From Leucoraja ocellata (Eukaryota): 64,000 nucleotides of DNA. The notes under the pieces are model-generated. The model saw only the letters and a program-made list of their open reading frames with translations, was not told the DNA's origin and made no database searches. Location of the stretch: contig JAWMAR010000079.1 in NCBI GenBank assembly GCA_036785375.1, positions 2,108,001 to 2,172,000 of the forward strand. Reading direction: 5' to 3'. A program made the position numbers and the translations under genes. Positions 1,723-60,879 of this stretch are shown here, one piece after another; positions within the stretch are counted from its first letter, which is position 1, and every line of letters begins with the position of its first letter.

Positions 1723-1888
1723 AGGTTACTTAGTAGTTGAGCATTAGCTTTCTTTAACCCATTATTTTCCCTTGCTCTCCCATTCTCTCCAAAAAGTTCC
1801 AATTCTCGTAAAGCCATTCTTACACCTTAACTCCTGTATCATAAGTCGTGCAGAGTGACTTCTATCAGGTGATTCTTGCATTATGACT

Positions 1889-2480
1889 TAGAATCTTACA
1901 GAGTGGAAACAGGCCCTTCGGCCCAACTTGCCCACACCAACCAACATGTCACATCTATACTAGTCTCACCCACCTGCTAAATATCCCTCTAAACCTGTCC
2001 GATCCTTGTACCTGTCTAAATGTTTCTTAAACATTACGATAGTACCTGCCTCAACTACCTCTTCCGGCAGTTTTTTCCATACCCTTTTCACCCTTCGCAT
2101 GAAAAAGTTACCCCTCAGGTTCCTATTAAATCTTTCCTCCCTCACCTTAAACCTATGTCCTCTGGTTCTCGATTCCCCAACACTGGGCAAGAGACTGTGT
2201 GTCTATCTGATCTATCCCCCTCATGAATTTGTACACCTCTATAAGATTACCCCCTATCCTCCTGCGGTCCAAGGAATAGAATCCTTGCTTGCTCAATCTC
2301 TTTCTATACCTCAGGCCTTCAAGTCCTGGCAACATCCTCGTAAATCTTCTCTGCACCCTTTCCAGCTTGACACCATCTTTCCTATAACATGGTGCCCAAA
2401 AATATACTCTAAATGCAGCCTCATCAACGTCTTTTATAACTGCAACATGACCTCCCAATTTCTCCACTCAATGCTCTGAC
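1889..2480 (-). mobile_element. CR1 LINE ORF2 3' fragment (frameshifted)
   Basis: ORFs 2153-2467 (LERVQRRFTRMLPGL) and 1966-2190 (SRTRGHRFKV...FKKHLDRY). Confidence 0.9.
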
Positions 2481-2760
2481 TTCTGTCTGGTAACTCCTGT
2501 ATTGGCCCTGCATGGAGACTCCTCCATTGTAGGTTTTGTATACTGAGTTTTGCCTGGTGACTGCTTTATCATGAGTCTTGGACCCATGTGCTGTTGTGAG
2601 TGATATGGATCAGAGACTCTGAACACCACCTGTGAACAGCACAATAATTCAGTTTCAATTCTCTCCCACTTTATCTATATTTAAGGATGGGACATTTTAT
2701 TTCTGCTCCCCAAACATGCAGGGTGCTAGGCTTATTACAAGACCCTTATCCAGTCAGTAA

Positions 2761-3282
2761 CAGGAGGACTCTCTCAAACGTCTACAGGTGCACAGTGGAG
2801 AGCATGTTGACTGGTTGCATCGTGCCTTGGTTCGGCAACTTGTGCGTCCAGGAGCGAAAAAAGCTGCAAAAAGTTGTAAACACTGCCCAGGCCAACACCG
2901 GCTCTGACCTCCCTACCATCGAGGGGATCTATTGCAGTCTCTGCCTCAAGAAGGCTGCCAACATCATCAAGGACCCACACTCATCTCTCCACTGCCATCA
3001 GGTAGAAGGTACAGGAGCCTGAAATCTGCAACATCCAGGTTCAGGAACAGCTTCTTCCCCACAGTCATCAGACTATTAAACACAACTTCAAACAAACTCT
3101 GAACTCTAACAGCCTATTGCACTTTATCTGTTTATTTATGTGTATATATATGGTCTATGGTATATAGACACACTGATCTGTTCTGTATTTATGCCTACAA
3201 TATTCTGTGGTGCTGCAGCAAGCAAGAATTTCATTGTCCTATCTGGGACACATGACAATAAACTCTCTTGACTTGACTTGAC
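2761..3282 (+). mobile_element. Rex1/Babar LINE 3' fragment
   Basis: YRCTVESMLTGCIVPWFGN...KKAANIIKDPH, ttcaggaacagcttcttccc motif, tail gacaataaa followed by (cttga)n. Confidence 0.85.
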
Positions 3283-3974
3283 TACATAGTCCAGGCTTTG
3301 GACTTAAATTTTTAGGATTTAAGCTCAGTGATCGATTGCATAAAGCAATTGTTGGCTGTGGGAACGGAGTCTGAATTGCCACTAATACAGTTATTCTAGG
3401 GTCACTGAGTTCATTTGCAGCACACATTTGTTTGACTGTCTCAGTATAATTTTGCAGATTAAGACATGGAATCTTTGTCCAGTATCTTGATGTCTGAGTG
3501 TCTGCCACCATATCAGCTCCTGGAGCCAAAGTCTATGGCGCCAAATGGAAAAAATCTTGACTTTAATCAGAAACTCAGCAGCCTAATGCAACATCAGAAC
3601 GAGTCTCTTTCCTTTCCTTTTGTTATTTTCTTTCCTCATAAACTTCCTTCCTTGTTTTCTTAGAGATTTTCTCCCAGCTGATGCGAGTCTAAACATTTAC
3701 TCATTTAGTCAAATAAATAATCATATGCAGAGAGAAGGCACAACAATGAGCCTTGTACACCCACAGCCCACCAACTCCCTACATTCAGGATACACAAACA
3801 CAACAGGCAAGAGAGAGAAGAAAGCTCCAATTCCTCACAACAGCATCGATTCATACAAAAATATATCCCACAGCAATGTGACACTGACAATGTGTCTGTA
3901 TGTCTGCAATTAATTTACCCTTCACTCTCCCGCTGCCTTTTGTGGCTGTCCGGCTTAGCTCCGCAACAGAAAAT

Positions 3975-4330
3975 CTTGGCATCAAACCTCACTCCAGAAA
4001 CTCAAGCATAAATTTATGCTAGCAGAGAGAGAGAGTACCATCTTACAATGAGAATCATATCTTCTACCCCCATCGATGCAAAACAATTCCCAGGCACTAT
4101 TTCAAAGCGGTGGTGGAGTTAAACACAAAAAGGATCTTGACCCCGAAATGTCACCCATTCCTTCTCTCCAGAGATGCTGCCTGTCCTGCTGAATTGCTCC
4201 AGATTTTTGTGTCTATCTTTGGTTTAAACCAGCATCTGCAGTTCCTTCCTACCTACACAATCATGTTAACCTGTGTCCAGTCCAACCAACATCACAAAAA
4301 CCAATAATCTGCTTATTATTGTGATGCATG
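3975..4330 (+). mobile_element. Degraded Deu-domain SINE interrupted by a Penelope pseudo-LTR fragment (~4125-4258)
   Basis: Deu-like ggcactatttcaaag...ccaaccaacatcacaaaaac halves flank cttgaccccgaaatgtcacccattccttctctccagagatgctgcc. Confidence 0.55.
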
Positions 4331-4619
4331 TAAATATGTGTACATGTTTGAAATTTGACACGTAACCAAATGTTGCTACATGTTTGTATCAGGCACTATT
4401 GTTTGGTTGAGGATTACTGCATTCAATAGAGGCTCTATTTCCATTTATGTAATTATCAAATCTGTCTGCTGTGTATCTTACATGGTAATAGTGCCTATAC
4501 TTGGAAGGTACTTTGTAGAACATGTGCGAGTTAGTGTCATTTTATGAACTGAGAATATCACAAAAGCTACGATTTCCAATATGTGGTGCCAGCCACTGCT
4601 GTTAGTCGGAAAATGATTA

Positions 4620-4876
4620 CAATAGACAATAGACAATAGGTGTAGGAGTAGGCCATTCGGCCCTTCGAGCCAGCATCACCATTTAATGTGATCATGGCTG
4701 ATCATCCCCAATCAGTACCCTGTTCCTGCCTTCTCCCCTATTTTTAAGAGCCCTATCTAGCTCTCTCTTGAAACATCCAGGGAACCTACCTCCACCGCTC
4801 TCTGAGGCAGAGAATTCCACAGACTCACCACTCTCTGTGAGAAAAAGTGTTTCCTCGTCTCCGTTCTAAATGGCTT
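4620..4876 (-). mobile_element. CR1 LINE 3' end
   Basis: (caataga)n tail and ggagtaggccattcggcccttcgagcc; close similarity to copies at 14390, 26688 and 39086. Confidence 0.9.
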
Positions 4877-4934
4877 CAATAATTGATTTTCGGTGGTAGT
4901 TCCACCTTTGTTATCTACCGCATTGAACATTATA

Positions 4935-5345
4935 TGGCTACGACACTCGCTGGGACGTTAAATTATTACAGAACTAGATTCTCTACATAAAACAATGGCA
5001 AACCATTCTGGAAATGTTGTTGAATTTGAGAAGTACAGTGAGTCTCAGCCATTTATCCTATATATGGAACAAACTGAAGTGCTCTTGAGATCAAACAATA
5101 ACACTGAACTATGGAAATGGAACAGAATAGAGAAATAGCACCATGTATAAAAAGACCAGGCCAATGTTTTTTATTGTTGGAGACATTTGAGACTTTGATC
5201 AGTCTGGCAAACCATAGATATCCTAAGAACATAATGTAAAGTTTTTGATGGGTCTTTAATCCAACACATTCAGAGATATTGAAGAATTGCAAGGATGAAA
5301 CATGCAAGCAGAGATTAAAGGAAACAATCAGTGAATACACAATCA
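4935..5345 (+). mobile_element. Degraded Ty3/Gypsy gag remnant
   Basis: PBS-like tggctacgac at ~4935; from ATG 4995 MANHSGNVVEFEKYSESQPFILYMEQTEVLLRSN, later ETFETLISLA and FNPTHSEILK...QRLKETISEY, matching the usual Gypsy gag N-terminal pattern. Confidence 0.5.
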
Positions 5346-5484
5346 AACAATATGCACAGGCAAAAGAGTATAATTTTATCGAATGAGAGGAATCTGGTGA
5401 AACTGAATGGACGTGGTGCTTAAATTGGTGTTCAAGTAATACAGCAGCAAGGGGCTGATGGTCTACAGATGTGAGTGGAATATC

Positions 5485-5830
5485 CACTGTGGCAACCATA
5501 AAATTTAATTTAATAAAATAATCTGGGCGTTAAAACCCAAAATCCTTTGTGGTGGATACCATGAAACTTTGAAATGTCATAAAAGTGCATCTCGTTCATG
5601 ATTGACCCCCAGGGAGGGAATTCTACCATTCTTACTGGAACAGGCCTTTACGACTCCAAACCCACAGTAAAGTTTTGGACTCGTAAAATGAATTTTGAAA
5701 AGACTTTGCAGCATATTCAATTATATCCTAATAGACATGATGTTGAACCACTAACGATATGACTTCCTCAAGGCCAATTGGGTATGTTCAATAAATAATA
5801 GTCTTTCTGGCAACACTCGCATTTAAAAAA
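5485..5830 (+). mobile_element. Old chondrichthyan SINE/LINE-tail repeat
   Basis: Same order of motifs as 56460-57210 (aataaatctgg...agggagggaa..gactcc...caataaa). Confidence 0.5.
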
Positions 5831-6904
5831 ACAAATAAAAAGAAATTGATATTCATTGGAGTGCAGAACAGAGAATCAGTCTGGAGATGGGACAAAAATA
5901 TGAAGCATTTTTGCGTATGGCATAATTCTGAAATTGAAGCAAAGAATAAGGCCACACAATTTGTATGGTTTTCAGCTTCATGGTTGAGTCACACAGATAC
6001 AATAAGTATGTTTGAAATCAATCGGTCTCGCCGGCGCCAAAAGCTACGTCCTTGTCGTGGATGATGATGGACTTATCCATCTTCAGGACGTTTGTTTCAG
6101 ATGGTTCAATTCTACATAGTCCCAAATGTGCAAGTTTTTGAAGAAAATGATTGCTGAAACATAGGACATATAGTCCTTGGAGCCTATGCCAGCTCATTCA
6201 GCATCAACAAAACCCAATGCAAGTTTCTGGGACAATAAATCATTTTCCATTTGAACAGATACGAGCCTCCACAGCCCAACATCAAATTTTCCTGTTTCTG
6301 TCTGCATCAGAACTGGCCATATCTACTCATGTCAGTCATCCAAATGTATTCTTGGCTCAGTGTTTTCTCTCTCCAATAGTGCATCCTGGCTTGCAGGGGA
6401 TGTACCATAGCCCTGCAATTAGGGGCACATGATAATAAGATGATGAGGCATAATCACCCTCCAACTGTCCCAATAACCTTATCAGATATTCCCTTTTTCC
6501 GATTCCTCCCTCCCTCCCTCACCTTTTCCGTTATTTAACCTTAAAATAACACACACGATTCAAGACATAAAGTGAACAATAAGAGCATTCTTCAAAGGTT
6601 AACGATTTGCAGTGCTGACCAGAGCTGCATGCCAATCAGGAGCCAGATGAACACGTCAGCAAGTGAAATATACAATTCATGATGATGGAAAAGAGATATT
6701 AGGGATGAAGTTATCCATTACGGAATATATATGAAAGGTTAAGTGTCTTTAAGAAGTATGCACAACATCAAATGTTGCTTTTGGTACATTGCTGCACCAG
6801 CCACTGCTGTTAGTTGGGAGTTGACTGACACTAATAAAGAGTGTTTTGCCACTGGCTCTCCACTATTATTTATCATATTCAAGCAGCAATACAAAAGGGC
6901 CTAG

Positions 6905-7065
6905 ACACTATAATTATCACATTCGTGTTTACGTATGTGAGCTTGCTATGTGCAAGTTGCTGTATCTTCTACATTACAACAGTATGTTTCAAGTACTCCA
7001 TTGACTGGAAAGGATGTTGGGGACAGGATGTAAAAGGTGCTACAGAAATGGTAGCTCTTCTTTCT
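6905..7065 (+). mobile_element. Deu-domain SINE 3' part
   Basis: ttgctatgtgcaagttgctg...ctacattacaacagt...ttcaagtactccattgactg...aaaggtgctacagaaatg; related pieces at ~410-480, 26020-26160 and 36560-36720. Confidence 0.6.
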
Positions 7066-9444
7066 CAACATCCCCCAACCCTTTCAAAAATCTGTGACTC
7101 CTCAGTTTCATGATTCTAGCAGCACAGATAACCCTCCTGCAATTGTTTGTCCTGTCAAGGTCGAAGCAGGCATTTTTGGCCATAAAATGTCATAGTACCT
7201 GAAAAGTGGACTCTTTTATAGGACCTTTCAGCATTAGTGTACCCGACTTCAGTTCACAAGGCTAAGAAATGGTCTGCCTATTATTTATGCCACTGCAGGA
7301 TGTCTTAATTTTTCTCCGAAATATCCCTAAATGTTTCACACACAGTTGAAATACTTCGACTGTTTTCAACAATTCAACAAGACCCTCACTCTAAGTGAAT
7401 GATATCCATTGAAGGAAGGTCTTTGGCCAAGATGATTAGCTGCTCCTCTTTGCGCAGAACTGTGTGATCCTTGACACCACACACACCAGCTGGCAGACCG
7501 AGAGTCCCACACCTTATTTGAGAGATGGCTTTACAATGAGAGCTACATGTTTAAATGTTACGAGGGGGGGACCCACCCACCCTCTGACTCAGAGGCAAAG
7601 CGCATCTAACTGAACCACAGCAGATAATTATTGTCTTGGAGCAGAGCCAGAGATAGTTGGATGAATGCTCAGTAAAACGACTTGAATATCTCAGCAGAAT
7701 GCTATCAGCAGAGAAACCTCCCGATTAATTGGATTCTAAATCTTGCCTTGGCCTGTCGATTCTTTCACTCAATTATCTCTCAAATATGGGGAAAAGGTTA
7801 CAAGGATTTTTTTGATTCGCAAAGGAAACACGTGTTTATTGCTTCAGCTCTCGTTCCTTATTCAATCCTTTCTTTTACTTTCTTTATTTCCTTTGCTTCT
7901 TGCTCATCAAGGCGCAGGCAACAAGCAGCAAAGGCGACTTCTCCACCAACTGGCTCAAATTTCCTCTCCCAAGGAACATCTCCCATTCTTTGACCTCTGT
8001 ACCACTTCAAAGTCATGGATGGGATGCAGGCACCGTCTGGGGCACAGTTTGTGTGCCCGCCTCAGGTAGAGGGGAGAGAAATCGCTGTGGTGTATTGCCA
8101 ATGTGTAATTGCACCTCACTGCTCACAGAGAACACTTTGCAAAGCATTTTAAAACTGCCATTCTCCACCCTGCCAAATTTGAAAATTGGCAAGCTCAGAA
8201 TTCCCCTCGAGCACTGGATTCGCATATGGTGAGAGAAGTCAATGATAGATGTGGAATTTATTCAGCACAGGAGGAAACCATTCAGCCCATTCTATCCGTG
8301 TCAGCTCTTTGAAAGTACACTTCAACTAGTCGCATTCGCCTGTTCTTTCACTCAATCCTGAAAAGTATTATTTTTCCACTACATATTTATTCAATGGAAT
8401 ATTATTAATGAAACTACTTCCACCATCCTTTCAGGCAGTAGTACTTGGAATGCATGACAGAGGTATTTTACAATACCTTTAGGAAGTGAGGAAACCATAT
8501 GATATGACCTCTTACACATCGCTGTTTAACCACTACTGTTGGCTGTACTGAACATCAATAGAAAATAATCCGAGGGCACTGTATGGATGATAGGTTTGAG
8601 ATGTTAGGGCTGAGGAAGAAGCCTGGCAGGAGCCGTGTCTTGGAAAATTGAACAAGGTTGTCACGGGAGAATTGTAACAATGGTAGGTTCTGTGGATTAG
8701 TTTGGATATGAACAAGGCATGGCAGCCTTGTCCCCTGGATTTTCCCTATCCACAGATCAGGTGTAGATATTCCTGAGAGCAAACAATACCACGAATATCC
8801 TGGGATGGATATTGAACAATGTGGAAAGAAAAAGGCAAAAGCCTGTTGTAACTGTAGAGACAACAGAAATAGGTCATTTATTTGTGTTCCAAAGGGATAT
8901 TTCAATCCAACCCCTACATAGACCTTTGAGAATTACATATTTGGTATAGGCAGCCAAGAATCAGAAGAGACAGTCAACAAATATGTCATCAGGCTATTGA
9001 CGTTGGCTAAAAGCTGAAACATTCAAACATTTTTCAATGAATCACTCTGGGTTTATTTGCTGTACAAGCTGGCATATAAGAGGAGTTAAGTAAAATTATC
9101 TGCCACTAAGGAAGCCTGCAGAATTGTCACATGGGTGGAAAGGAATGAGACCTTGCTGAGGCTCTTATGGAAGACACCTGTCCTCTAAGTGTCCTTTCAG
9201 TACAGAACAATTCTTTAATTGCAACCAAATATAACCAACTTACTGCTCGCATGAGCAGGACTCCACTGAAAGCAAATGCTGATAAAGACAACTGTCTTTG
9301 TTGCAAAGGAGACAAGTTGTAGAATAGTCCAACTGGAGGATCATCCATGCCCTGGAATTAGAGACTGAGGATGTGGCATTGGTGATGTTAAGTCAAATTT
9401 ATTACACAGTTGTAACGGAATTTTTCATGAAAACCTTACAGCAT

Positions 9445-10130
9445 AAACAGATAAGAAATAGGAGCAGGCCCTTTGAGCCTGCTCCTCCACTCAACCAAAT
9501 TATGGCTGATCACTTTATCATTCCCTCATTCACACCACACATTCCTTGAAATCTATTGTTTTTTATTTCCGATGAATTCAATGGCCAAGCCTCCAAATCT
9601 CTCGGGGATCAAGAATTCCAAATCGACATTACCCTATGATTGAAGAATATTCCCTGCAAGCTAGTCCTGATATCGTGCCCCTTCTTTTGAATCTATGACC
9701 CCCTGGCCCTTGACTCCACAGCACGAGGAAAGAACCTCCCCATATCCACATTTCTGAAAGAATTTTGCATGCCTCAAAGAAATCTCTTATTTTTCTCTTA
9801 AAGAATAAAAGTCGAGACAATCTCTTCTCATATGATAGGCCTGTCTTCCCAGGATGATGAATGCCCAGCATTCATCATCCTGGGAAGACAGGCCTATCAT
9901 ATGAGAAGAGATTGTCTCGACTTTTATTCTTTAAGAGAAAAATAAGAGATTACTTCCTCCAAAGCAAGCATTTATTGTGAATGGAGACCAAATCTGTACA
10001 CAATATTGCGGTATTGTCTTGTCAAGGTCCAAGTTAATTGTACATTTTTACTTTTGTATTCAAACCCTGATACCACAAAAGCTTACGTTCCAATTACCTA
10101 TCTAACTGTTTCACCAGCATTTTGGCTTAG
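9445..10130 (-). mobile_element. Degraded CR1 LINE 3' fragment containing a perfect palindrome
   Basis: ORF 9629-9871 GLSYEKRLSRL...GGHRFK; CR1 tail at 9455-9520. Confidence 0.75.
9781..9951. repeat. Perfect inverted repeat, 84-bp arms with 3-nt loop
   Basis: 9781-9864 is the exact reverse complement of 9868-9951; loop cca. Confidence 0.97.
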
Positions 10131-20605: not shown

Positions 20606-21250
20606 TCAAGCAGCAGCTGTGGAGGGAACTGGACACTTGACGTCTCAAGTCGGGATCCTTCATCTGTACTGAAAGAGGGGAGATAGCCAGTATAAATAGT
20701 TTTGGGGGGGGAGATCGAGATAAAGTTGGATTGACTGGCAGATGGATCCCAGGTGGGAGGGAATGGTGAAGTGACAAAAGCTGGTAGGTGATAGGAGGCA
20801 ACATGGGCGGCAGATATGAAATCTGATAGGTAACAAAGGTGAAGTATAGAACCAAATAAAGGTAGTAGGTTTTTGGCAGATGGAAACTGTGGGAGGAGTA
20901 CGTGGGTGATAGACATATGGAGTGGCTGGGGAAATGGAAAAAAAGTGTGCGGGGGTGCTGGGTAGAATGAGAAAGAAAGACACAAGAGCAGTTGAAGGTT
21001 TCTTGAAATTAGAGAATTCAATCCTTATGTTATTGGTTTGCAGATCTCCAAGGTAGAATATGAGGCGATGTTCCTCTAGTTTGCAAGTAGCCTCACCTTG
21101 GCTGGGAACAGACAGGTCAGAGACGCAAGAGAGTGCATTGGATGGAATCTTGAGCAAAAAAACAAAGTGCTGGAGGAACTCAGCGGGCCAGGCAACATCT
21201 GTGGAGAGTAATTTCAAAATAGAGTTCCTTGCACCGTTTTTCAGACCAAG
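20606..21250 (-). mobile_element. Degraded Penelope-like element 3' end (GIY-YIG C-terminus plus pseudo-LTRs)
   Basis: ORF 20660-21217 contains SQGEATCKLEEHRLIFYLGDLQTNNIRIEFSNFK, homologous to the 59898-60224 C-terminus. Confidence 0.8.
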
Positions 21251-26687: not shown

Positions 26688-27448
26688 CATAGAAACATAG
26701 AAGATAGGTGCAGGAGTAGGCCATTCAGCCCTTCGAGCCTGCACCGCCATTCGATATGATCATGGCTGATCATCCAACTCAGTATCCCATCCCTGCCTTC
26801 TCTCCATACCCCCTGATCCCTTTAGCCACATCTAACTCCCTCTTAAATATAGCCAATGAACTGGCCTCAACGACCTTCTGTGGCAGAGAATTCCAAAGAT
26901 TCACCACTCTCTGTGTAAAAAATGATTTACTCAACTCGGTCCTAAAAGACTTCCCTCTTATCCTTAAACTGTGACCCCCTAGTTCTGGACTTCCCCAATA
27001 TCAGGAATAATCTTCCTGCATCTAGCCTGTCCTTAAGAATTTTGTAAGTTTCTATAAGATCCCTCCTCAATCTTCTAAATTCTAGCGTGTACAAGCCGAG
27101 TCTATCCAATCTTTCTTCATATGAAAGTCCTGCCATCCCAGGAATCAGTCTGGTGAACCTTCTCTGTACTCCCTCAATGGCAAGAATGTCTTTCCTCAGA
27201 TTAGGAGACCAAAACTGTACGCAATACTCCAGGTGTGGTCTCACCAAGACCCTGTACAACTGCAGTAGAACCTCCCTGCTCTTATACTCAAATCCTTTTG
27301 CTATGAATGCTAACATACCATTTGCTTTCTTCACTGCCTGCTGCACCTGCATTCCTACTTTCAATGACTGGTGTACCATGACACCCAGGTCTCGTTGCAT
27401 CTCCCCTTTTCCTAATCAGCCACCATTCAGATAATAGTCTACTTTCCT
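26688..27448 (-). mobile_element. CR1 LINE ORF2 3' fragment (relatively young)
   Basis: ORF 26942-27400 QRDLGVMVHQSLK...RPHLEYCVQFWSP...EGVQRRFTRLIPG; (acataga)n tail. Confidence 0.93.
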
Positions 27449-29100: not shown

Positions 29101-29393
29101 TCCAGTAGGATCCAGCAGGGAGAGAAAGCAGGCATAAGGACATGTTGGTTTATTATTGTTGGAAATGATTGTCACCAGCAATTCTCATTGCCCGTCCTAT
29201 GCTGACTATCCCTAATCAGCCTTTGCCCATCCAAATGCCTGTATATCCTATCACTCAGAACACTCTACAGTAACTTACCAACTACAGATATTAGGCTCAC
29301 CAGCTTATAGTTCCCAGCATTTTCCCTGCAGCCCTTCTTGAAAAGAGGTACAACATTTGCCACCCCACAGTCTTCCGGCACCTCTCCTGTCCA

Positions 29394-29790
29394 CAGGGGT
29401 GGAAATCGGTATCAAAATATGGGTGGGACACAATTTGGGGGGGGGCCACAGTTTCTTGGTGGCCGTGTGCACGCGCATACACAACCACGCAAGGCTTTGG
29501 CCTTGGGCCCTGTGGACGGTAACATCGGGAGCTAAACTGGATGGTGACCGACTCCGAACTCCAGCAACAGCAGCTTCTTCCACCCCGAATCGTGGGACTT
29601 GAATCGGCCCGTTCGCAGGGCCTTTCATCGCCCGGTGCGGCTTAAAATCGGCCGGCGGCAGCTTCAACATCAGGAGCCTCGATCGCCTCGATGCAGCTGT
29701 TTCGATTTTAAGCCACACTGGGCTATGAAAGACCCCGCGAATGGGCCAATTCAAGTCCCGCGGTGGAGCGTTTAAACTTACGGATGATCA
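29394..29790. mobile_element. GC/CpG-rich non-autonomous element, possibly hAT-like left end
   Basis: Abrupt GC-rich block beginning caggggtggaaatc; no matching right TIR found. Confidence 0.35.
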
Positions 29791-29969
29791 GAGGCCAGTA
29801 TTGTAGAAGCACAAATGTCTCAGGGTGTTGCAAGGCTGATAAAAACTACAGGTAGAGGGAGGGGTGATAAGAGGGATTTTAAGACAGGCTGAGAATATTA
29901 AAATGAGGCCTTGTTTAACCGAAACACAGTGTAAGTAGTCAGCAATCAAAGGGAGGAATATTAACATGT

Positions 29970-30790
29970 CTTGTTTAACTGAAACCTGTACTCCCAGATC
30001 TCTGTCCTGCAGCACTCTCCAGGATTCTACCATTTACTGTGCGAGTCCTGCCTTGGATTGGCAAACCAAAGTGCAACACCTCACACTTGCCAGTGTTAAA
30101 CTTAATATGCCATTCCTTTGTCCACCTGCCCAAATGAACTTGATTATGTTGTAAATTTAGATATCCTTCTTCACTATCCATAATATCAGCAAATTTGATG
30201 TCACCTGCAAACTTAATAACAATGTTAACTACATTCATCCAAATTGTTACTGCAGATAACAAGCAACGATGGACCCAGTACCAATCCCATTGGCACTCCA
30301 TTGGTCACAAGCCTCAAAACCCTCCACTACTTTTCACTGGTTCCTCCAAGCCAATTTTGAATCCAATTAGCTACCTCACCTTCCATTCCATTCCGTGTAC
30401 TCTAATCTTCCTACCTAGCCTACCATGTGGGAGTTATTCAAAGGCCTTACTAAAGTCCATGTACACAACATCTATTACCTTGCCCTCTGCAATCTTCTTG
30501 GTGACCTCTTCAAAAAACGACCCAATTTATGAGATAGGATTTTCCATGCAGAAACCCATGGTGACTTTCCCTAATTAGTCCTTGCCTTTCCAACTGCTGG
30601 TGAATCTTATCCCAAGAATCCCCTCTAACAATTTACCAAATACCAACACAAGATGATAAGAATAAGTATATCCTTTTATTCTGAAGCTGTGCCCTCTGGT
30701 CCTAGACTCTCCCACTACTGGAAACATCCTCTGTACATCCACTTCTCAGCCCTTCATTATTCTGTAGGTTTCAATGAGATCCCCCCTTTG
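29970..30790 (-). mobile_element. Degraded CR1 RT fragments
   Basis: ORF 29975-30301 KFAGDIKF...WHIKFNTGKCEVLHFG; ORF 29788-30033 QDRDLGVQV. Confidence 0.8.
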
Positions 30791-39085: not shown

Positions 39086-39727
39086 CATGCAGGTACAGCA
39101 GGCAGTGAAGAAAGCGAATGGCACGTTGGCCTTCATAACAAGATGAGTTGAGTATAGGAGCAAAAAGGTCCTTCTGCAGTTGTACAGGGCCCTAGTGAGA
39201 CCACATCTGGAGTATTGTGTGCAGTATTGGTCTCCAAATTTGAGGAAGGTCATTCTTGTTATTGAGGGAGTGCAACGTAGGTTAGTTCCTGGGATGAGGA
39301 CTGTCATATGTTGATAGAATGGAGCAGCTGGGCTTGTATACGCTGGAATTTAGAAGGATGAGAGGGCATCTTATTGAAACGTTAAGGGTTTGGACATGCT
39401 AGAGGAAGGAAATAGGTTCCGGATGTTGGGGGAGACCAGAACCGGGGCCAGAGATAAGAAAAAGGGGTAGGCCATTGAGAACGATGAGGAAAAACTTTCG
39501 CAGAGAGTTGTGAATCTGGGGAATTCTCTGCCTCAGAAAGCAGTGGAGGACAATTCTCTGGATGCTTTCAAGAGAGAGTTAGATAGAGCTCTTAAAAATA
39601 GTGGAGTCAAGGGATATGGCATGAAGGCAGGAACGGGGTACTGATTGTGGATGATCAGCCATGATCATATTGAATGGCGGTGCTGGCTCGAAGGGCCGAA
39701 TGGCCTACTCCTGCACCTATTGTCTAA
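39086..39727 (+). mobile_element. CR1 LINE ORF2 3' fragment
   Basis: QVQQAVKKANG...RPHLEYCVQYWSP; tail cctactcctgcacctattgtcta. Confidence 0.9.
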
Positions 39728-43065: not shown

Positions 43066-43216
43066 AGTCAGATCTTCTTGAGATCACAGTATTTCTCAAG
43101 TCTCAGCTGGACTATGAAACAACAATTTGGGGGTTTAGTCTTGTAACCACTTACAGGACTCTTTTATTCCTTTGCCAATTGGACTCTCCACAATCCAATA
43201 CGCTTTGCCTAACCAA

Positions 43217-44183
43217 TGTCATATCAATCCATCACACTGGTCCTCCCTGACACACGTTGCGTTTGATAAATCACTGGATTCAGATAACAATTTTGTTTCA
43301 CTCAGTATTTTATTACACTCCTAAATAAGGCACATACACTCACGTATCCCCGAATATCCCTGAACACACTCGCAAACCCCGAGTACACAGCAAAGCACGC
43401 CACGGGATGTTTCGTTCAAGATCACCTGGCACTGTTCGCGACACAGTCCAAGGCTGAGGTTCTCTCCCCAAAAGGGCACCCAACACCAATCTTTATGGCA
43501 TTTCTTATCAGAGCAGACCGCGCCACTGCCCCCTCCCCGACCCAATCATAAGCCCCCCTTGTCTGCAACGTTTCTGCGCTACTTGCGGCAGGGGGCACAG
43601 GTGATCTACCCAACTATTGCTGTTGTTTTGCTCAGCTCAACTAGACATTGTTTGGGAACATCTACTCAAACATTGCTGTGTTTTGTTCGCCAACGCAGCC
43701 TTTCCCATGCACTGATCGCAGGTGCGAGGAGATAAACTTGTTTTCGTAGACCGTGGGATGTATGGCTGCTAATTAGGCTGATAACTCCATTTCACATTTT
43801 AGCTGAAATTGTTAGTTCAACCCTCACACTGCACTCCAACTCTTGGAGTCATCCGTCTACATTAGCGTCCATCTAACTACATGTTAATGATTATACAAAC
43901 AATAATAATCACAAGTAAAGTATAATTATTATATCTCTATGAATGTGAGATTATGTCAAACTACCTATCCATGCCATAAAGGCATGAGTTATGTGTTCTA
44001 TCAGACACTGAGCTAGTTTCAGATGTCTCTGTGAAAGCAAATATTATCTCAATGGCCTTGCAAGCATCCCCATGATTTACAGGCCCCTTTTAATCAGCCC
44101 AAGCATGCAAAGTTGTGTTTTGAACACAATTTCACCGTAACAACATACACCCCAAATCCCATTACATTCGGCCCACAGGCTCA
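43217..44183 (-). mobile_element. Putative 3' LTR (~0.97 kb)
   Basis: Starts TG just after the purine tract agagagtgaagggatggta (~44185-44203); CCAAT and GC-box near 43530-43547; AATAAA at 43309-43314; candidate end ...atgaCA at 43217. No second LTR is present to confirm the ends. Confidence 0.6.
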
Positions 44184-44204
44184 ATACCATCCCTTCACTC
44201 TCTT

Positions 44205-44555
44205 GGCACTCCTCACACGGCAGTAAGGAAGCACACAATTCCAGAATATTATGCCACCACCAAAACAAGCCCAGTCACCAGCCATGGCATATGCCCACAA
44301 GCTCCAAACTCCCAAGATCAGTTCGTATTGCCACCATTTCAGCACTCAGGGCTTGGATAGCCTGCCCTGCAACTACTAGCCTGAGAGTGGTCCCGTTGTC
44401 TGTGATGTGGGACATGTGTTCAAACTCAGTTTACGTAGGTACGCATGCAGGAGCGAGAGATAGGCGTTTGATTCCGTGCAGACAAGTGATGCGGCAGCCA
44501 GCACTGCCAGAAGTATCAGCCCGTGCCATCGTCCGATACACATGATGTGCCTCAT
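44205..44555 (-). pseudogene. env: Retroviral env remnant (signal peptide, SU start, TM heptad, membrane anchor)
   Basis: Acceptor tccgtcttctctttacAG at 44563-44580; ATG 44555 MRHIMCIGRWHGLILLAVLAAASLVCTESNAYLSLLHAYLRKLSLNTC; other frames give AGQAIQALSAEMVAIRT and GLVLVVA/IIFWNCVLPYCR. Confidence 0.65.
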
Positions 44556-44586
44556 GATTGTTCTGTAAAGAGAAGACGGAGCTGGC

Positions 44587-45620
44587 TCACTCTCGCCTGG
44601 TTAAGTGCTGTAAAGGTAGACATCTAGGTTTATCCTCCCCGGTCACCAAAAGCCACTGCGTATTGCCCTGTGCTGCAGCAATAACTTCCCCCTTGCGAGG
44701 GGGTCCCCCACCGGGGACCGAAACTCACAGCTTCCGGGCGTCTTCCTGATGTTCTTTCGTCGGTGTGGCGTCATCTGGCTCGATTGCAACAGCCAGATGT
44801 CGGCTCATGGGTGTATCACCCTGCCAAAGGCCGTTGGTTCAAGTTGTTTACTGCTTGCTGCAACACAAGGGCCCACCCCTTGAGTGTATGGGAGGAGGTT
44901 AGTGTACATATCTGCTTTTTAAGTAGACCATTCATACGCTCCACCAGCCCTGCTGCTTTTGGGTAATACGAGATGTGGAGGGTTCACTGCACCTCATCAT
45001 CAACTGCCCACTGTTATACTTTGTGACTGGTAAAGTGGGACCTGTTTTCAGACTGAATCTCCCATGTGGTGCCATACACGGCCATTAGTTGGTGCAGACC
45101 ATGTATTCCCCACCCCTGGGACTGAACTGTGTCATCCACACAGCCATACCGTTGGCAACTGCCCAGGATTCGGTGTATAGTTGGACTGGAGTATTGTCAT
45201 CGGACAAAGGAAGAGCCATGACCTCCTCATGCAGACGGCTAACACTGTCAGGGCCTCTCTCAGCCCTATCAGAGATGTACCATTTCCATTTTACAATAGA
45301 GGAGAGCTGTGCGTGTTCCTCCTTATGGGAGATATTGGCTGACTTAACCCAGGTAATAATAGGTAAGAGAGGGCGCATAACCACTATCCCACCCGCCATA
45401 AGGTGTTTGGTAGCAAGGAGTGCCAAGTAACATGCAAATAACTGTCGTTCAAAGGGTGAATATCGCGCGGCGGGGGAGATCAGGCAATGTCTTTGTCCAG
45501 AAGTCGAGACTCGCCCGCTGTCCATCATGCTGTTGCCACAGACTCCACTCCTCCTCACGAGCAGTAGCCGACATCTGCAATTCAAAAGAATATGCTGGTG
45601 ATATCTGCAGAAATCAGCCA
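44587..45620 (-). pseudogene. pol: ERV-L-like pol remnant (connection, RNase H, integrase)
   Basis: FELQMSATAREEEWSLWQ...DFWTKTLP, YSPFERQLFACY...MRPLLPIITWV...AQLSSIVKWKWYI..RA..GP..VSRLHEEV, LYTESWAVANG, SHFTS...HISYYPKAAGLVERMNGLLK, VLQQAVNNLNQRP, GPPRKGEVIAAAQGNTQWLL; stop at 44587-44589. Confidence 0.9.
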
Positions 45621-46480
45621 CATAGGTATGAGTGTAAATGGAATATTGCATGAGACTGAGAATGCATCCTTGCGGGCACTAGTGTTGGGAATTATCATGG
45701 AGGATGTTTTGTTGTATTTCCTCACCGATTGTGGTCTGCGGGTCAGGAGGTTGAGGAATGCAGAGGGGGATGACCCCTAGGTCCAAAAGTTTGGAGATGA
45801 GTTTGATTGGAATTATGGTGATGAAGGTGAAGCTATATCAATCAATAATCTTACGCAAGCTAGACACAAAATGCTGGAGTAACTCAGCGGGTGAGGTAGC
45901 ATCTCTGGAGAGAAGGAAGGGCGACGTTTCTTCCTTATTATCCAGATGTTCCAGCAATGAGTGTGGGGGCCAGGCAGATGCCATCTGTATGAACCTGTTC
46001 CACTAGGCAAACTGCAATGGATCAAGGATATCTGGTAGGGCTTATTATATGACCTTGATGCACTTCATGATGGTGGATGTCAGAGCCATGGTAATCATTA
46101 AGGCATTCTACCTTGCTTTTCTTTGGCACCAGGATGTTACTTCATAAAGCAGGTGGGAAATTCAAAATAGAGCATGGTGAGATTAAAGATGCCAGTGTAA
46201 ACTCCTGCCAGCTGCTCAGCATAGGTCTTGGCGATACAGCAGGGAATTCCATCTGGGCCAATTGCTGACCGAGTTCACTCCCAGGTAGGCCGATCTGACA
46301 TCTGCGACACCAACTGTTGGTATACTTTGCAGCTGAGGCTGTCGGGGTAGATAACGTCATTCCACTGACCTTCTGTTCAAAGCAAGCATAGAATGCAGAA
46401 CTCATCAGGGTGAGACATGGAACGCATTGTTACCTGCGATATACCGCTCCACTTCAATTTGTAGCCCATTAAACATGTAC
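45620..46480 (-). mobile_element. Rex1/Babar RT fragment abutting the ERV (contains a Penelope pLTR piece at ~45860-45930)
   Basis: SAFYACFEQ (ORF 46142-46405); ggtgccaaagaaaagcaagg; gtgttgggaattatcatggagga. Confidence 0.7.
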
Positions 46481-47589: not shown

Positions 47590-50150
47590 AAAACCAGCTT
47601 ATCCAATCTTCCCTTGCAATTACAGCTCTCTATTCTAGGTTAATTACTAATGCATCCCTTCACCAGTATGTTTATTTCTACCCCATCCTTCCTGTAGTGT
47701 AGCATCCAGAACTGTACACAATACCCAATTTATGGTCTAACTGGTGCTTTATACAATTACAACATGACATCCCAACTCTTCATGCCTCAGCCTATGAAAG
47801 AAAGCATACCAAACTACCCTATCCACTTATGCTACCATTTTCAGGGAGCTATGAACATGCGCCTCAAGATCTCTGTAAATCTATGTTCCTAAGAGCCCTA
47901 CCATTTACTTTATACATCCTACAATTGACCTCACACTTATCTGGATTAAATTCTATCTGCTACCACTCCACCCAATTTTCCAGCTGATCTATGTCCAGCT
48001 GTATATACCGATTCAGATTCAGATTCAATTTTAATTGTCATTGTCAATGTACAGTACAGAGACAACAAAATGCATTTAGCATCTCCCTGGAAGAGCGACA
48101 TAGCTCCTGGAAGAGCGACATAGCTTACATACTTAATGACACAATTTATGACTCCACTAATTTTCCGATCATCAACAAACTCACTAATCACGCCACTACC
48201 TTCTGCCTCCCATCACCCAGACAATTTTGGATCAAGTCCACCAACATACCTCCATCCTGTGTGCCTTAACCTTCTGGACCAGCCTACCAAGAGCTTAAAG
48301 CTCTTGTGAACTACATTCACCTCTCTGCCTTTGTCAATTTTCTTCTTCACCCTCTCAAATATGCTCAATTTGTGAGACATGGTTTCCCTGGCACAAAACC
48401 ATGCCGTCTCCTAATCAGTCCCTGTCTTTTCAAGTGAAAATAAATTCTGCTCCTCAGAAACTTTCCAACAACTTCTCAATCACCAGACCTATCCCTACTT
48501 TCTTTTTTGAACAAGGGGACATTAGCTTTATTCCATGCTCAATGAAGGTACAAAAAAAAATCTTATCAGACCCCCAGCAATCTCCTTGCTTCTATTAAAA
48601 GCCTGGGATAGATCCCATCAGGCCTGTAGATGTATCCAATCCAAAATGCTTCAATACTTCTAAAACTTTCTTCTTCCTCAAGAATACCGCTTCCTTAATT
48701 CCCCAGTCTCCTTTTCCCTGGTGAATACCAATGAGAAGTATTGATTTATGATCTTGCTCGTTCCTGACACCACGCATAGATTGCCCTCTGCCTAATGTAT
48801 AGTAGAATTGTCACTGAATTGTATGCAATAAAATAATTTCACTGTGCTTAGGTGCATGTGATAATAAAGTACCATTTAACAATTAACCCATCCCTGATTT
48901 CTTCCTTAGTTACCATTTTGCTTCCAATATACTCATAAAAGGTTTTAGGGACCTTATTAATCCTATTTCCATTTCATTGTCCCTTTTCCATCCCATAATT
49001 TCCTTCTTAAATTTGCTCCGGAATCACCTATAAATCTCAAGTAACTTGCACAATACAATTTCCTACACCTGATATACTCTCCCTTCTTTTCTCGGATTAA
49101 ACCGTCAATATCCTTGATAACTATGATTCCCTACACCTACCATCTTTGCCTCTTACCTTTATAGAAACATGCTGAATCTGAACTTCTACCATCTCATTTA
49201 TAAATGCCACCCACGTATAAGATGTTGTCCCCCCCCCCCCCCCCCCCCCATGCAGCTGCTCTAGTCTATCTCTCCCAGTTCTTACCTTACACAATCAAAA
49301 TCTGCCTTTCCCCAACTCAAGGACTAACTTTATATTTTTCAATAACAACCTTGAAATTAATGAAAGTTCTCAAAGGAACTTTGGCAAAGGAACAAAGGCA
49401 GTTCTCAAAGGGTTCCTCCATTGCCATTTCATATCATTTTCCGTTCTCATTCCATAAGATTGGGTCAAGCATAGCCCCTTCCCTCATAGGACTCTCCTTT
49501 AGAAAACCCTCTTGAATGTATTTTACGACTTACTCCTCTCATCCAAGCCCCTTGCTCCGAGGCAATTTCAGTCAATACCCTTCTATTGTAACTCTATCGT
49601 TTTTACATCATTTCTGCAATTCGTATACATATTTGTTCTAATTCTTTCTGCCTAAAGGGAGACCTACGATCTAACACCATCAAAATATCTATCCCTTTAC
49701 TATTACTAAGTTCTATACATGCTAACCAATTTTAATACCGGTAATTTGAAGCAAAATGTGAGATTTTCGTACATTGATGATGTAGTGTTAATGAAAGTAG
49801 ATGTTGTTGCTATTTGTTTGGCATCTGGCAAGTTTGAATTTATTTTCACTTACTGCATTTGTCCCATATCCCTCTAAATATTTATATCCATGTATCTGTC
49901 CCAGTGTCTTTTCAACATTGTTATTATACCTAAGATAGACACATAAAGCTGGAGTAACTCAGTGGATCAGACAGCATCTCTGGAGAAAAGGAATAGGGCA
50001 AAGCCCTTCCTTGGACTGCTTGCCTCAACTGCTTCCTCTTGGAGCTCATTCGATATAACCACCACCCGCTGTGAGGAAGAGATACTCTCAGGTTCAAATC
50101 TTTAAATCTTTCTCATCTCATCTTAAACTTATGCCCAGTACTTCTGGATT
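47590..50150 (-). mobile_element. Long, highly degraded CR1 fragments with small nested tails (48010-48125, 48795-48880, 49935-50015)
   Basis: ISEFVDDRKISG, VLEVLKH...GLMG; ccagaactgtacacaatac. Confidence 0.65.
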
Positions 50151-52534: not shown

Positions 52535-54215
52535 AAAGACTGCAGGTGCTGGAATCTGAGGCAAAATCAAGGAGAGCAGCTGGAGGAACTCAATGGATCA
52601 TGCAGCATCTGTGGAGGGAAACAGACAGCAGACATTTCGGATCAAGATCCTTCATCTAAACTAAAAGAGGGGAGATAGCTTGTGTAAAGAGTGGATTAGT
52701 AGAGAAAGAGCTAGCAAGGAAATGTTAAGTGCAGGTGAGAAGGTGTTGATTGGCAGATACCAATAAGGAGGGGAAGGGTAGCGATGGCACATAAGCCAGG
52801 GAGTGCTGTAGAAAACAAAAAGCTGCAGATTCTGAAATCTGAAAAGATGAAGAATGCAGCTGAATGAAGGGAGGTGGCAGATGGAACAACAGAGGGAGGG
52901 GAGAGGTGAGCAGTGAATTGGAGGAAAAGGATCCAGTGGAAGGAGTGTGGGGAGAGGGGGGGGGTAAAAGACACAGGACGGTCGGGTGCTTGAAATGGGG
53001 CATACGAGAGAGGATCAGGGTAGATAGGAGGAGAGTGAGGGTGCAGTTTTATCTAAAGTTGAAGGTTTCAATGGTCATGTTGTTGGGTTGTAGAAGGCAG
53101 AATATAAAGAGTGTTCCTCTACTTTGCAATTGGCCTTATCCTGACAGTGGAGGAGGTTGAGCATAGACAAGTCAATGTGGGGAGGGAAGTGGAATCAAAG
53201 TGGTTGGCAACTGGGAGATCCAGCGGAAGGAACGCAGGTGCTCGGCACGAGTGGTCACCTAGTCTGCATTTTGGTCTCAATAGGCGAGGTGGGAGGAGGT
53301 ACAGCTGAATCTGTCTCACCCAGAAGAACTGTATAGATCCCTGGATAGAGAGGGAAGTGTAGGAACAGATGTTAAACCTATAGTTGTAGGGTTGAAGGAA
53401 TGAGTGGAGGGATAAGAGAACGAGAAAGTCACAGAATGGTCCATGCAGAAGGTCCTGGGGAGGGGAAAATGTGATTGATTTCATCTCCCCAGTCACTTTT
53501 CTGTAACTTAGGTGTAACACCTCTCCCTACAACCTTCTCCCTCAACTCCATCCAGGGATCTAAACAGCCCTTCCAATTGAGACAGATATTCAACTGCACC
53601 TCCTCCAACCTCATCTACTGCATTTAGTACTCTCAATTTGGCCTCCGCTACATCAGCAAGCCGAATGCAGACTAAACAACCACTTTTCCTAGAAACTGCA
53701 CCCTGTCTATTGTAACCATCTGGATCTCCTAATTGCTTGCCAGTTTAATTCCTCTTCCCATTCCCAGATCAACTTGTTTGGCCTCAGCCTCCTCCACTAC
53801 CAGAGTGAGGCCAAACAAACTAGATGAACAGCATCTCATATGTCACCCGAGTAGTCTATAACCCAATGGCATGACCACTTAACTCTGATTTCAGGAATCA
53901 CACACTCCATCCCTTTCTCCCTTCCTACATTTCCTGGTCATCTCTCACACTCCCTGCTTCTCACATTAACCCCATCTCCCCCCCCCCCCCCCCCCCCATT
54001 ACTCATCTCTCCTGTGTTCCCATCTGCCACAACTCCTCAGTTCTTCATCATCTTCCTTTCCTATCAGATTCCAGAATCTGAAGCCTTTTGTTCCCCACAT
54101 TACTTCTTGGTGTCTGTTGCTATCTCCACTTTTCCCTCTCCCACCCGATTCAAACAACTCCTCCTCACTTACTTACAAGTGCTTGCCCCAGCCCTGCCCT
54201 CTTTTAACTGGTTAT
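52535..54215. mobile_element. Divergently oriented pair of degraded Penelope-like 3' regions (- 52535-53500, + 53505-54215)
   Basis: Minus ORF 53119-53520 RPKCRLGDH...DLPVANHF; plus strand atccagggatctaaacagcccttcc...cacctcctccaacctcatctactgc. Confidence 0.75.
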
Positions 54216-57129: not shown

Positions 57130-57881
57130 TTACTCTCTCATTGATTAAGAGAAATTTGGTATGGGCAATAAAGGCAGGCTTTGCCAACCATGGCCACATG
57201 TGTGGCCGAGTTGAAAAGTATCCAATTTCAACAAGAATCTTCACTTTCGACTGTAAATTTCCTGTGCAAGTATTACTCAGTGTCCTTGTCCCATGACACA
57301 AGTACAAATCCAGTATCAAACACACAAAGAAATGTTTTTTGCTTCACTTGGTTTGTTCACAGTAAAGGGGTTTTCACAAGCAAACCTACAACTACTGATA
57401 ATTATAACATCAGCTTTTGTGCATAATGTGAATGAAATTGTGTACTGTAAAATTAACAATTCAATTCAAGTGCAGTTTCTTACCACTTCAAGCAGGATGC
57501 AAGGCCACCAAATTCAAGTGCAGTTTCATACCATTTCAAGCAGGGTGCAAGGCCACTAAAGACAGCGAGTCGTAACCTCTCCCTCCTCCATCTTGTAGAG
57601 ACTGAGCCACTCCCTCACTTCTGGCTTTTATAGTCCCTCCCCCTCCCACCAGAAGGGGCGTGGCCTTCATGGCGTGATTGACAGGAGAGCGAATCTCAAC
57701 ATTTTTAAAACACTAATAACTCTTTTATGTTTCATCGATGGGAAAAATCCTCGGCACCTGATGAGCGGAGGGGGACTCCGAGTAAGATGGCCAAAGATCA
57801 CAGCCGTAAGTGGTAGCGTTTTTTCTAAATTCAATATAAAGCGCAAAGAGGAAGAGGTCAAGATTGGACTTTTAATGATAT

Positions 57882-58043
57882 ATTAGGCAAGGCAACTTTA
57901 ATTAGGCAAGGCAACTTAAATTAGGCAAGGCAACTTAAATTAGGCAGGGCAACTTTAATTAGGCAGGGCAACTTTAATTAGGCAAGGCCACTTTAAATAG
58001 GCAAGGCCACTTTAAATAGGCAAGGCCACTTTAATTAGGCAAG
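57882..58043. repeat. 19-bp minisatellite, ~8.5 copies
   Basis: attaggcaaggcaacttta unit. Confidence 0.95.
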
Positions 58044-58048
58044 TCAAA

Positions 58049-58190
58049 TTTAGCATTTCCAAACCAAAGGCAATACAGCTTTAGCATTTCCAAACCAAAG
58101 GTAACACAGCTTTAGCATTTACAAACCAAAAGCAACACAGCTTTATCATTTCCAAACCAAAGGCAACACAGCTTTAGCATTTCCAAACCA
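58049..58190. repeat. 31-bp minisatellite, ~4.6 copies
   Basis: tttagcatttccaaaccaaaggcaacacagc unit. Confidence 0.95.
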
Positions 58191-58541
58191 CATTAAGGGC
58201 ACTGACAGGTCAGTAAAACCACTCACAGTTTAGTAGACATGCAGTGTTATTCACAGCTCAGACTGAGAGACGTGATCCTCTCGCTCCCCTATCTTGCAGA
58301 GACTGACTGAGGCACTCAACACTTCTGGGTTTTATAGTCCCTCCGGAAGGGGCGTGGCCTTCAGGAGAGAGAATCTCAGCATTTTTTAAACACTAATAAC
58401 TTTTATTTTTCATCAATGGGAAAAATCCTCTGAGTAAGATGGCCAAAGATCACAGCCGTAAGTGGCAGCGTTTTTCTAAAATCAAAATACAGAACAGGAA
58501 GTGGTCAAGATCAGACTTTTAGTGATATAGATATAACTATA

Positions 58542-59770: not shown

Positions 59771-59897
59771 TAGACAAAAATGCTGGAGAAACCCTTCTTC
59801 AGACTGATGTGAGGGTGAGGGAAGGGCGGGAATAAGAAAGGAAGAGGTGGAGACATTGGGCTGAGGGAGAGCTGGGAATGGGAGGAGAAAGTAGGGA

Positions 59898-60437
59898 CTA
59901 CCTGAAATTGGAGAAGTCAATGTTCATACCGCTGGGGTGTGAACTGCCCAAGCAAAATATGAGGTTTTGCTCCTCCAATTTACGGGAGGCCTCACTCTGG
60001 CCATGGAGGAGGCCCAGAACAGAAAGGTCAGATTCGGAATGGGAGGGGAAGTTGAAGTGCTGAGCCACCGGGAGATCAGGTTGATTATTGCAAACCGAGC
60101 GGAGGTGTTGGGCGAAACGATCGCCAAGCCTAGGCTTGGTCTCACCGATGTAGAGCAGCTGACACCTAGAGCAGCGCATGTAATAGATGAGGTTGGAGGA
60201 GGTGCAGGTGAACCTCTGCCGCACCTGGAAAGACTGCTTGGGTCCTTGAATGGAGTCAAGGGGGGAGGTAAAGCGACTAGTGTAACATTTCCTGCGGTTG
60301 CAAGGAAAAGTGCCAGGAGAGGGAGTGGTTTGGGTGGGAAGGGATGAATTAACCAGGGAATTACGGAGGGAGCGGTCTCTGCGGAAAGCTGACAGGGGAG
60401 GAGATGGGAAGATGCGGCCAGTGGTGGGATCCCATTG
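59898..60437 (-). pseudogene. GIY-YIG endonuclease domain of a Penelope-like element (open ~180 codons, 5'-truncated)
   Basis: DPTTGRIFPSPPLSAFRRDRSLRNSLV...FPCNRRKCYTS...FTCTSSNLIYYMRCSRCQLLYIGETKPRLGDRFAQH...HF...RKLEEQNLIF.LGS.HPSGMN. Confidence 0.9.
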
Positions 60438-60499
60438 GTAGCAAAAAAGCTGGAGAAAATCATCGGGTGAGGCAGCATCTATGGAGCAAAGGAATAGAC

Positions 60500-60530
60500 G
60501 ACGTTTCGGTTTGAGACCCTTCTTCAGACT
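60500..60530 (-). ncRNA. Minimal hammerhead ribozyme motif in Penelope pLTR
   Basis: AGU CUGAAGA AGGGUCUCAAACC GAAA CGUC. Confidence 0.6.
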
Positions 60531-60879
60531 GATGTCGAGGGGGGGAGGGAAAAAGGAAGAGGCGGAGACAGTAGGCTGTGGAAGAGCTGGGAATGGGAGG
60601 GGAAGGAAAGAGAAAGCAAGGACTACCTGAAATTGGAGAAGCCAATGTTCATACCGCTGGGGTGTAAACTACCCAAGCAAAATATGCGGTGCTGTTCTTC
60701 CAATTTGCGGTGGGCCTCACTCTGGCCTTGGAGGAGGCCCAGGATAGAAAGGTCGGATTCGGAATGGGAAGGGGATTTGAAGTGTTGAGTCACCGGGAGA
60801 TCAGTTTGGTTATGGCGAACTGAGTGGAGGTGTTGTGAGAAGCGTTTGCCAAACCTCATCGGGTCTCATCGAGGTTGAT

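Follow-up and report, generated by a model that had tools for sequence, protein, structure and literature searches.

A remnant of about 2.3 kb on the minus strand, from about 45600 down to 43255 of the window (the whole 64-kb stretch of DNA that was analysed), is best explained as a non-coding, 5′-truncated provirus of the ERV-L/ERV-S type (class III, clade Huo). Its deletions in pol and, likely, in env are common to other copies, so that the element was likely non-autonomous and copied by the proteins of intact relatives; we give this reading a probability of roughly 70%. Five pieces of pol with about 280 codons in all, some 0.4 kb of env-like DNA, a polypurine tract and one LTR make up the remnant. 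The pol order RT–tether–RNase H–integrase, an env region (recognized by position only), the polypurine tract and a TG...CA LTR are those of an endogenous retrovirus of the Retroviridae. The locus cannot encode a working enzyme, and any present role would probably be confined to the promoter and polyadenylation signals of the LTR.

Overall structure of the element

The contig comparison was made at 85% likeness in four runs (X1, X4, X8 and X12), and twenty runs of ten organisms contain part of the stretch. The sequence-only reading had set the retrovirus at 43217..45620; an element does lie there, but its 3′ end is at 43255 and the last 38 nt of that interval are flank, which from 43254 is covered by contigs at single-copy depth. 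The 5′ edge lies near 45590–45600, and two X12 contigs (records 14 and 15) turn unlike beyond 45588–45589. The single 3′ LTR of 891 bp (43255..44145, minus strand) starts with TGTTG at 44145, has an inverted copy of this motif agreeing in four of five positions at 43259–43255, and carries the signals TATAA at 43933 and 43895 and AATAAA at 43314. Summed contig depth rises from 20, 44 and 36 in the flank to 1500–7800 in the last LTR bins. No second LTR copy and no 5′ leader, where the tRNA-Leu or -Ser primer site of a class III element would lie, were found within the 64-kb window, gag, protease and RT gave no match within it, and Rfam returned 0 matches across it. The observed/expected CpG ratio in 43255–45600 is 0.48–0.63, compared with 0.26–0.27 in the flanks, and the GC content is 52% inside the element and 41% in the flanks.

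The pol pieces and their deletions

The eight peptides that the sequence-only reading had picked out are all on the minus strand and follow one another in the order that it gave, and their matches lie well beyond chance level. The retroviral order of the pol motifs therefore stands, but they do not form a continuous pol: two large deletions, stops and frameshifts near 45475, 45110 and 44820 interrupt it, and RT is absent. Piece 1 (45479..45598), the end of the RT thumb and the start of the tether (WSLWQ...FWTKTLP), matches class III Pol at 40–54% over 35–40 amino acids. Piece 2 (45202..45471), the tether or connection (YSPFERQL...SIVKWKWYI), matches the mouse cluster P0187 at 57% over 89 amino acids and the stingray protein P0153 at 56%. 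Piece 3 (45121..45183) is a short RNase H fragment (LYTESWAVANG) with a match of 81% over 16 amino acids to P0153. Piece 4 (44822..45106) corresponds to the second half of the integrase core; two stops interrupt its frame, and it matches P0153 at 62% over 92 amino acids. Its Pfam matches to rve and rve_3 are weak and under the cut-off, and its best E value against PDB integrases is 1.3e-5. Piece 5 (44587..44821), comprising a linker and the integrase C-terminal domain (GEVIAAAQGNTQW) up to the pol stop at 44589–44587, lies in another frame than piece 4, contains one internal stop and is colinear with P0153, with a match of 37% over 86 amino acids.

When the 127-amino-acid tether/RNase H frame (45468–45088) was searched against 5.8 billion proteins, the Gag-Pol of the red stingray Hemitrygon akajei was found with an E value of 3.7e-28, and only three proteins among 203 candidates were recovered, namely this Gag-Pol and two caecilian Pol models; a library of 1.84 billion gave 176 representatives at E values up to 0.001. 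The relatives include proteins from Hemitrygon, Hypanus, white shark, seahorse, killifish, toadfish, bichir and lungfish, as well as from frogs, caecilians, a newt, lizards, birds, marsupials and mouse. From the nearest relatives (Hemitrygon), and from a Hypanus gene model with matches of 47–59% to further repeats of the window, the host is likely a skate or ray. The PDB gave no match for the tether frame, and Pfam gave no family for the tether, env-like or upstream frames.

The first deletion, between pieces 2 and 3, has removed about 90–95 codons: the spacing from the tether motif to the RNase H motif is 40 amino acids here, whereas it is 123–136 amino acids in all 32 compared proteins that have both motifs. 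The second, between pieces 3 and 4, has removed about 170 codons, that is, the rest of RNase H, the integrase zinc finger and the first half of the core. The spacing from the integrase core to the C-terminus is 47 codons here and 51 amino acids in the stingray protein, compared with 162–181 amino acids in four other relatives, among which those from mouse (175 amino acids) and killifish carry a Pfam dUTPase. There is no room for a dUTPase between the integrase core and the C-terminal domain, and the element is not an ERV-L in the strict sense.

Copies, shared deletions and age

The junction counts come from the 32 contig pieces listed, a small and length-biased part beside 360,920 further pieces. 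At least eight of those listed cross both pol junctions and extend at least 31 nt beyond them. Three of these are the locus itself or orthologues (0, 5 and 10 differences), and at least five of the listed pieces (X1 records 5 and 6, X4 records 19 and 21 and X12 record 13) are paralogues, with 46–53 differences in 337–418 nt (12–14%) and 2–8 gap positions. At least two more listed contigs cross the first junction only, and at least two listed records (X4 record 22 and X8 record 31) cease matching exactly at 45205 and then continue; judged from the alignments, the latter are apparently copies without the first deletion, diverged by about 10–12%. In organism A at least three loci carry both deletions, and forms without at least the first deletion coexist with them at similar divergence. 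The paralogues of equal coordinates in organisms A and B are probably the same two loci, hence about three loci per genome.

Several independent loci with the same internal deletions (at least five listed contig pieces) are characteristic of a non-autonomous LTR derivative. As the paralogues have identical pol deletions, it is likely that the form with these deletions multiplied as a non-autonomous element; most simply, intact relatives would have copied a deleted master in trans. A different account of the same class III remnant is that the deletions arose once and were spread by duplication or gene conversion at the DNA level, with no helper-dependent retrotransposition. The small number of loci agrees with this account, as does the fact that the shared junctions are known only from short contigs of 300–450 nt, among which no complete deleted element with two LTRs and target-site duplications is seen. 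However, in X1, X4 and X8, compared at 85% likeness, the 3′ flank (43105–43245) stays at the depth of a single contig, whereas depth is several-fold higher in the interior and about 75–175-fold higher at the LTR end (as summed depth, which is not copy number), and a flank at single-contig depth argues against segmental duplication. Moreover, the deleted and the apparently undeleted paralogues are about equally diverged. We therefore regard spread at the DNA level as unlikely, and continue with amplification in trans.

The junction between the LTR and the flank is bridged by single contigs in what is likely the element's own species (0 differences), in organism B (9 differences in 436 nt) and in organism D (19 differences and 2 gaps in 458 nt), which corresponds to a divergence of 2–4%; X12 (organism E) has no contig over 43156–43245, and the junction result covers B and D. 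The same insertion junction in organisms B and D indicates that the insertion predates the split of these two and the element's own species and is old. At the mutation rate given for the epaulette shark in the consulted part of PMC10587355 (7e-10 per site per generation, a value from another species and with a ten-fold interval), a difference of 4% between orthologues already corresponds to many millions of years, and a rough estimate of the age would be tens of millions of years.

Phylogenetic position

The trees were calculated from 32 rows, including five gamma-type outgroups, after eight ingroup rows (near-duplicates, short or chimeric) had been dropped, and their columns cover the tether, RNase H and integrase; the formal assignment of class uses a phylogeny of the RT core, which is gone here. 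The RT of the stingray relative is 50% identical to that of the mouse cluster. In all three careful trees the sister of the element is the H. akajei Gag-Pol, with support values of 95/96 (810 columns), 98/93 (241 columns) and 96/94 (no outgroup, mixture model), and the element groups with the stingray among mouse ERV-L-like, amphibian and teleost elements. A quick first tree, with chimeric gene models as outgroups, had left the position of the element unresolved.

The assignment to an ERV-L/ERV-S-like, class III lineage, which had been proposed from the motifs, is borne out: the tether matches the mouse cluster at 57% over 89 amino acids, none of the five class I references has a significant tether match, and the trees agree. 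In the Pol phylogeny the element stands with MuERV-L-type elements, apart from class I, as expected of class III (HERVS/L-like, clade Huo). A gammaretrovirus-like, class I identity was also considered, and placement with PERV/REV/MLV was rejected (p-AU 2e-51 and 1e-67).

The sequence-only reading had further suggested a poorly described deep branch. In its strongest form this would be a branch born in chondrichthyans at the base of the ERV-L/ERV-S radiation, which co-diverged with the jawed vertebrates. With the element forced to be the deepest ingroup row, the tree was kept on the 241 filled columns (p-AU 0.559, a log-likelihood 2 units above that of the free search), and the deep ingroup nodes are poorly supported. 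On 810 columns, however, the same placement was marginally rejected (p-AU 0.039), and the end branch of the element is long (0.67–0.72), which invites long-branch pull. A single clade of the element, the stingray and the white shark was rejected (p-AU 0.005), the white-shark element being placed with those of killifish and seahorse (100/98), and the part of PMC6001957 at hand describes cartilaginous-fish retroviruses as not basal in any major clade. A deep, co-diverging branch is thus quite improbable and the suggestion mostly unsupported, although a basal position as such is only weakly excluded by these alignments. The Pol proteins of Carcharodon (P0175/P0006), Nothobranchius (P0186) and Hippocampus (P0008) cluster closely on short branches (100/98), a pattern that suggests host switching between sharks and teleosts. 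With one clade rejected, skates and rays on the one hand and sharks on the other seem each to carry a separate ERV-L/S-like lineage, which agrees with host switching and not with co-divergence.

Class III was tested here against gamma-type outgroups, in rows that include no SnRV, foamy, epsilon, HERV-L or HERV-S sequence; the best 120 of 461 proteins in the homology search for outgroups contained gamma-type proteins only, with no SnRV, foamy or epsilon sequence among them, and a scan of IMG/VR with the mouse-cluster Pol gave no match. An SnRV-like, epsilon/gamma or Gypsy element might then have been mistaken for an ERV-L-like one, the more so as elephant-shark ERVs are described as SnRV-like or epsilon-like in the available part of PMC4977317 and as neither SnRV nor epsilon is present in the tree rows. 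Such a mistake is nevertheless highly improbable. The mouse ERV-L-like cluster, which matches the tether so well, also matches the integrase at 45%, whereas class I references reach 26–33% in the integrase. In the PDB the stingray relative finds foamy-type PR-RT (E value 8e-55) and MLV-type RT (6e-53) far above Ty3 (4e-33), with PFV integrase first among the integrases. The gamma and Gypsy readings can be regarded as already largely refuted.

The env-like region

The segment behind pol (44146..44584, minus strand) is a likely env remnant by its position and motifs. A pyrimidine tract (16 pyrimidines in 20 positions) precedes an AG at 44564–44563 in a splice-acceptor-like context, and an ATG at 44555 is followed by a hydrophobic leader with a Kyte–Doolittle 13-mer maximum of 2.95 at 44519. 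A heptad-like stretch runs up to 44320 and is followed by a hydrophobic tail and then by the polypurine-tract-like motif GGGGTG (44153–44148). Two contigs (records 10 and 28) diverge at 44320–44322, inside this part. Pfam, the Atlas and BLAST gave no support for the env-like region (the Atlas had no usable match for the 59-amino-acid leader frame), tblastn of the collected relative proteins against it gave matches at chance level only, and neither the CXXC motif of SU nor the immunosuppressive domain and CX6CC motif of TM is present in the 0.4-kb remnant. The segment is likely a deleted env, and the organization may be that of an ERV-S-like type, with a putative env.

Co-option of the element under selection, as an LTR promoter or a short env-leader peptide, is scarcely credible: the insertion has been retained in at least three organisms and the splice-acceptor-like context and hydrophobic leader have survived, but stops and frameshifts run throughout the element, its orthologues differ by 2–4%, about equally inside the element and across the flank, and none of the 84 long frames of the window has a Pfam match to a host gene.

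Neighbouring repeats

Upstream of the provirus and outside it lies a decayed high-copy repeat (45600..46160, minus strand; repeat family D2) of high contig depth, which is split by a SINE-like repeat at 45855–45943. From its motifs we take the upstream repeat to be a putative RT of a Rex1/Babar-type LINE; neither Pfam nor the PDB gave confirmation of a LINE label for 45600..46160. Elsewhere in the window, fragments at 2228–2401, 27041–27415, 29199–30652, 39090–39375 and 47685–47810 match the non-retroviral parts of chimeric bird gene models and are presumably CR1-type LINE ORF2. Penelope-like remnants at 59901–60832 (minus strand), 21002–21121 and 53696–53815 are recognized by a weak GIY-YIG match (E value 9e-4, under the cut-off) and by a match of 41–59% to the C-terminal portion of a gene model from Hypanus sabinus; 59874–60131 and 60599–60856 form a direct repeat of 85%. 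Two adjacent tandem arrays occupy 57844–58221, with a 19-nt unit in about 10 copies and a 31-nt unit in about 5 copies. At 9777–9955 an inverted repeat of 88 nt, almost perfect (99% complementary) and with a loop of 3 nt, is either a MITE-like hairpin or an assembly fold-back.

Evolutionary scenario and relation to previous work

The history of the element may have been as follows. An exogenous ERV-L/S-like virus without a dUTPase would have entered the batoid germ line, and one provirus would then have lost about 260 pol codons and most of env while retaining its LTRs and polypurine tract. Helper copies may have provided in trans for the packaging, reverse transcription and integration of its RNA, which would have produced several loci with identical junctions. 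In the present copy the 5′ half would later have gone, likely through a deletion or rearrangement beside the LINE remnant, followed by neutral decay for what were likely tens of millions of years.

The novelty that had been claimed for the lineage largely falls away. According to the accessible part of Blanco-Melo 2024 (PMC11089739), six chondrichthyan genomes contain 2,843 RT loci of clade III, which are the majority of their ERV RT loci, and RefSeq contains stingray and white-shark models. In the portion of Xu 2018 (PMC6001957) consulted, clade Huo, which takes in the class III ERVs, is found in all major vertebrate lineages, and in its S2 Fig. the tips Rh_ty_ERV3 (whale shark) and No_fu_ERV1 (killifish) adjoin HERVL, Murine_ERVL and HERV-S, as far as tip order alone can tell. 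The description of the lineage as best known from tetrapods was a correct account of older reviews: PMC4977317, in the part consulted, treats HERVS/L-like elements as a tetrapod group and describes the ERVs of elephant shark as SnRV-like or epsilon-like. This accounts for the surprise at finding such an element in a cartilaginous fish. A literature search, from whose reach most subscription journals were excluded, found no paper naming a skate or ray ERV-L family, and the family of the element is not named in the available parts of PMC4422223, PMC10699275, PMC10536682 and bioRxiv 2021.11.23.469661.

The locus itself matters little, being a single dead representative of a group that had already been reported from cartilaginous fish. 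The additions are modest: a batoid branch distinct from that of sharks and teleosts, and deletions common to several copies, which suggest a non-autonomous subfamily. In a broader and tentative reading, to which we give slightly less than even odds, batoids hold their own dUTPase-less, env-bearing ERV-S-like lineage, apart from the shark/teleost ERV-L-like lineage of Xu 2018. This lineage would have spawned a non-autonomous subfamily with fixed deletions in pol and env, a fish parallel to the mammalian MaLR, and the spread of this subfamily in trans would date back tens of millions of years; in a stingray, long and nearly identical Gag-Pol copies and Fv1-like Gag genes are still present. If this is true, the stingray is a place to seek a class III retrovirus that was active until recently, or a co-option of the Fv1 type among cartilaginous fish. 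It is the stingray relatives, and not this locus, that can inform on the age of the group and on a possible co-option of Fv1-like Gag outside mammals.

Comparison with related elements

The nearest relatives are the H. akajei models (XP_072891825.1 and XP_072898008.1; P0001/P0153), with 57% over 241 columns. Their integrase C-terminus is colinear with that of the element and likewise comes without a dUTPase; they have long Gag-Pol frames (known as gene models only), whereas the copy in the window is deleted, truncated and interrupted. The P0001 cluster comprises 13 gene models at 90% or more, including four Gag-Pol models of 1,520–1,579 amino acids, and five of the 13 members bear the RefSeq name 'Friend virus susceptibility protein 1-like'. 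The cluster is a young class III family of this stingray, possibly with candidates for Gag co-option. Fv1 itself descends from MERV-L gag (PMC4977317, part consulted), and no paper naming the H. akajei ERV gene models was found.

In the available material of PMC6001957, the start of the Rh_ty_ERV3 Gag has several motif blocks in common with the stingray Gag (by eye, in the first 400 letters), and No_fu_ERV1 opens with TGTTG, as does the LTR of the element; the place of Rh_ty_ERV3 is more likely in the branch of white shark, killifish and seahorse than in that of the batoids. Among four further little-skate records of that source, none had an ERV-L-like look by eye.

The mouse cluster P0187 (753 members, including those from Mus) would be MuERV-L, judged by its members and motifs. 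Its motifs YSPFEKQLL, SIIKWKWYI and DSWAVANG have counterparts in the tether and RNase H of the element. The MuERV-L-type mouse element has a dUTPase between the integrase core and the C-terminus, for which the element in the window has no space. MuERV-L is not known to carry an env, unlike the element with its env-like remnant. MaLR are deleted ERV-L-type derivatives that are thought to be copied in trans, with no known pol and with far higher copy numbers; the element, in contrast, retains scraps of pol and env, and only a few loci have been shown.

A parallel in organization exists with XtERV-S of Xenopus tropicalis (PMC8278194, as far as available) and HERV-S, in which a class III pol is followed by env, as it is in the element by a likely env recognized by position. 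XtERV-S differs in being intact, with a dUTPase region and a demonstrated gamma-type TM. Besides over 140 solo LTRs, the same source counts 19 XtERV-S copies with internal deletions; these deleted copies keep the 5′ end of gag, whereas the element described here keeps scraps of pol.
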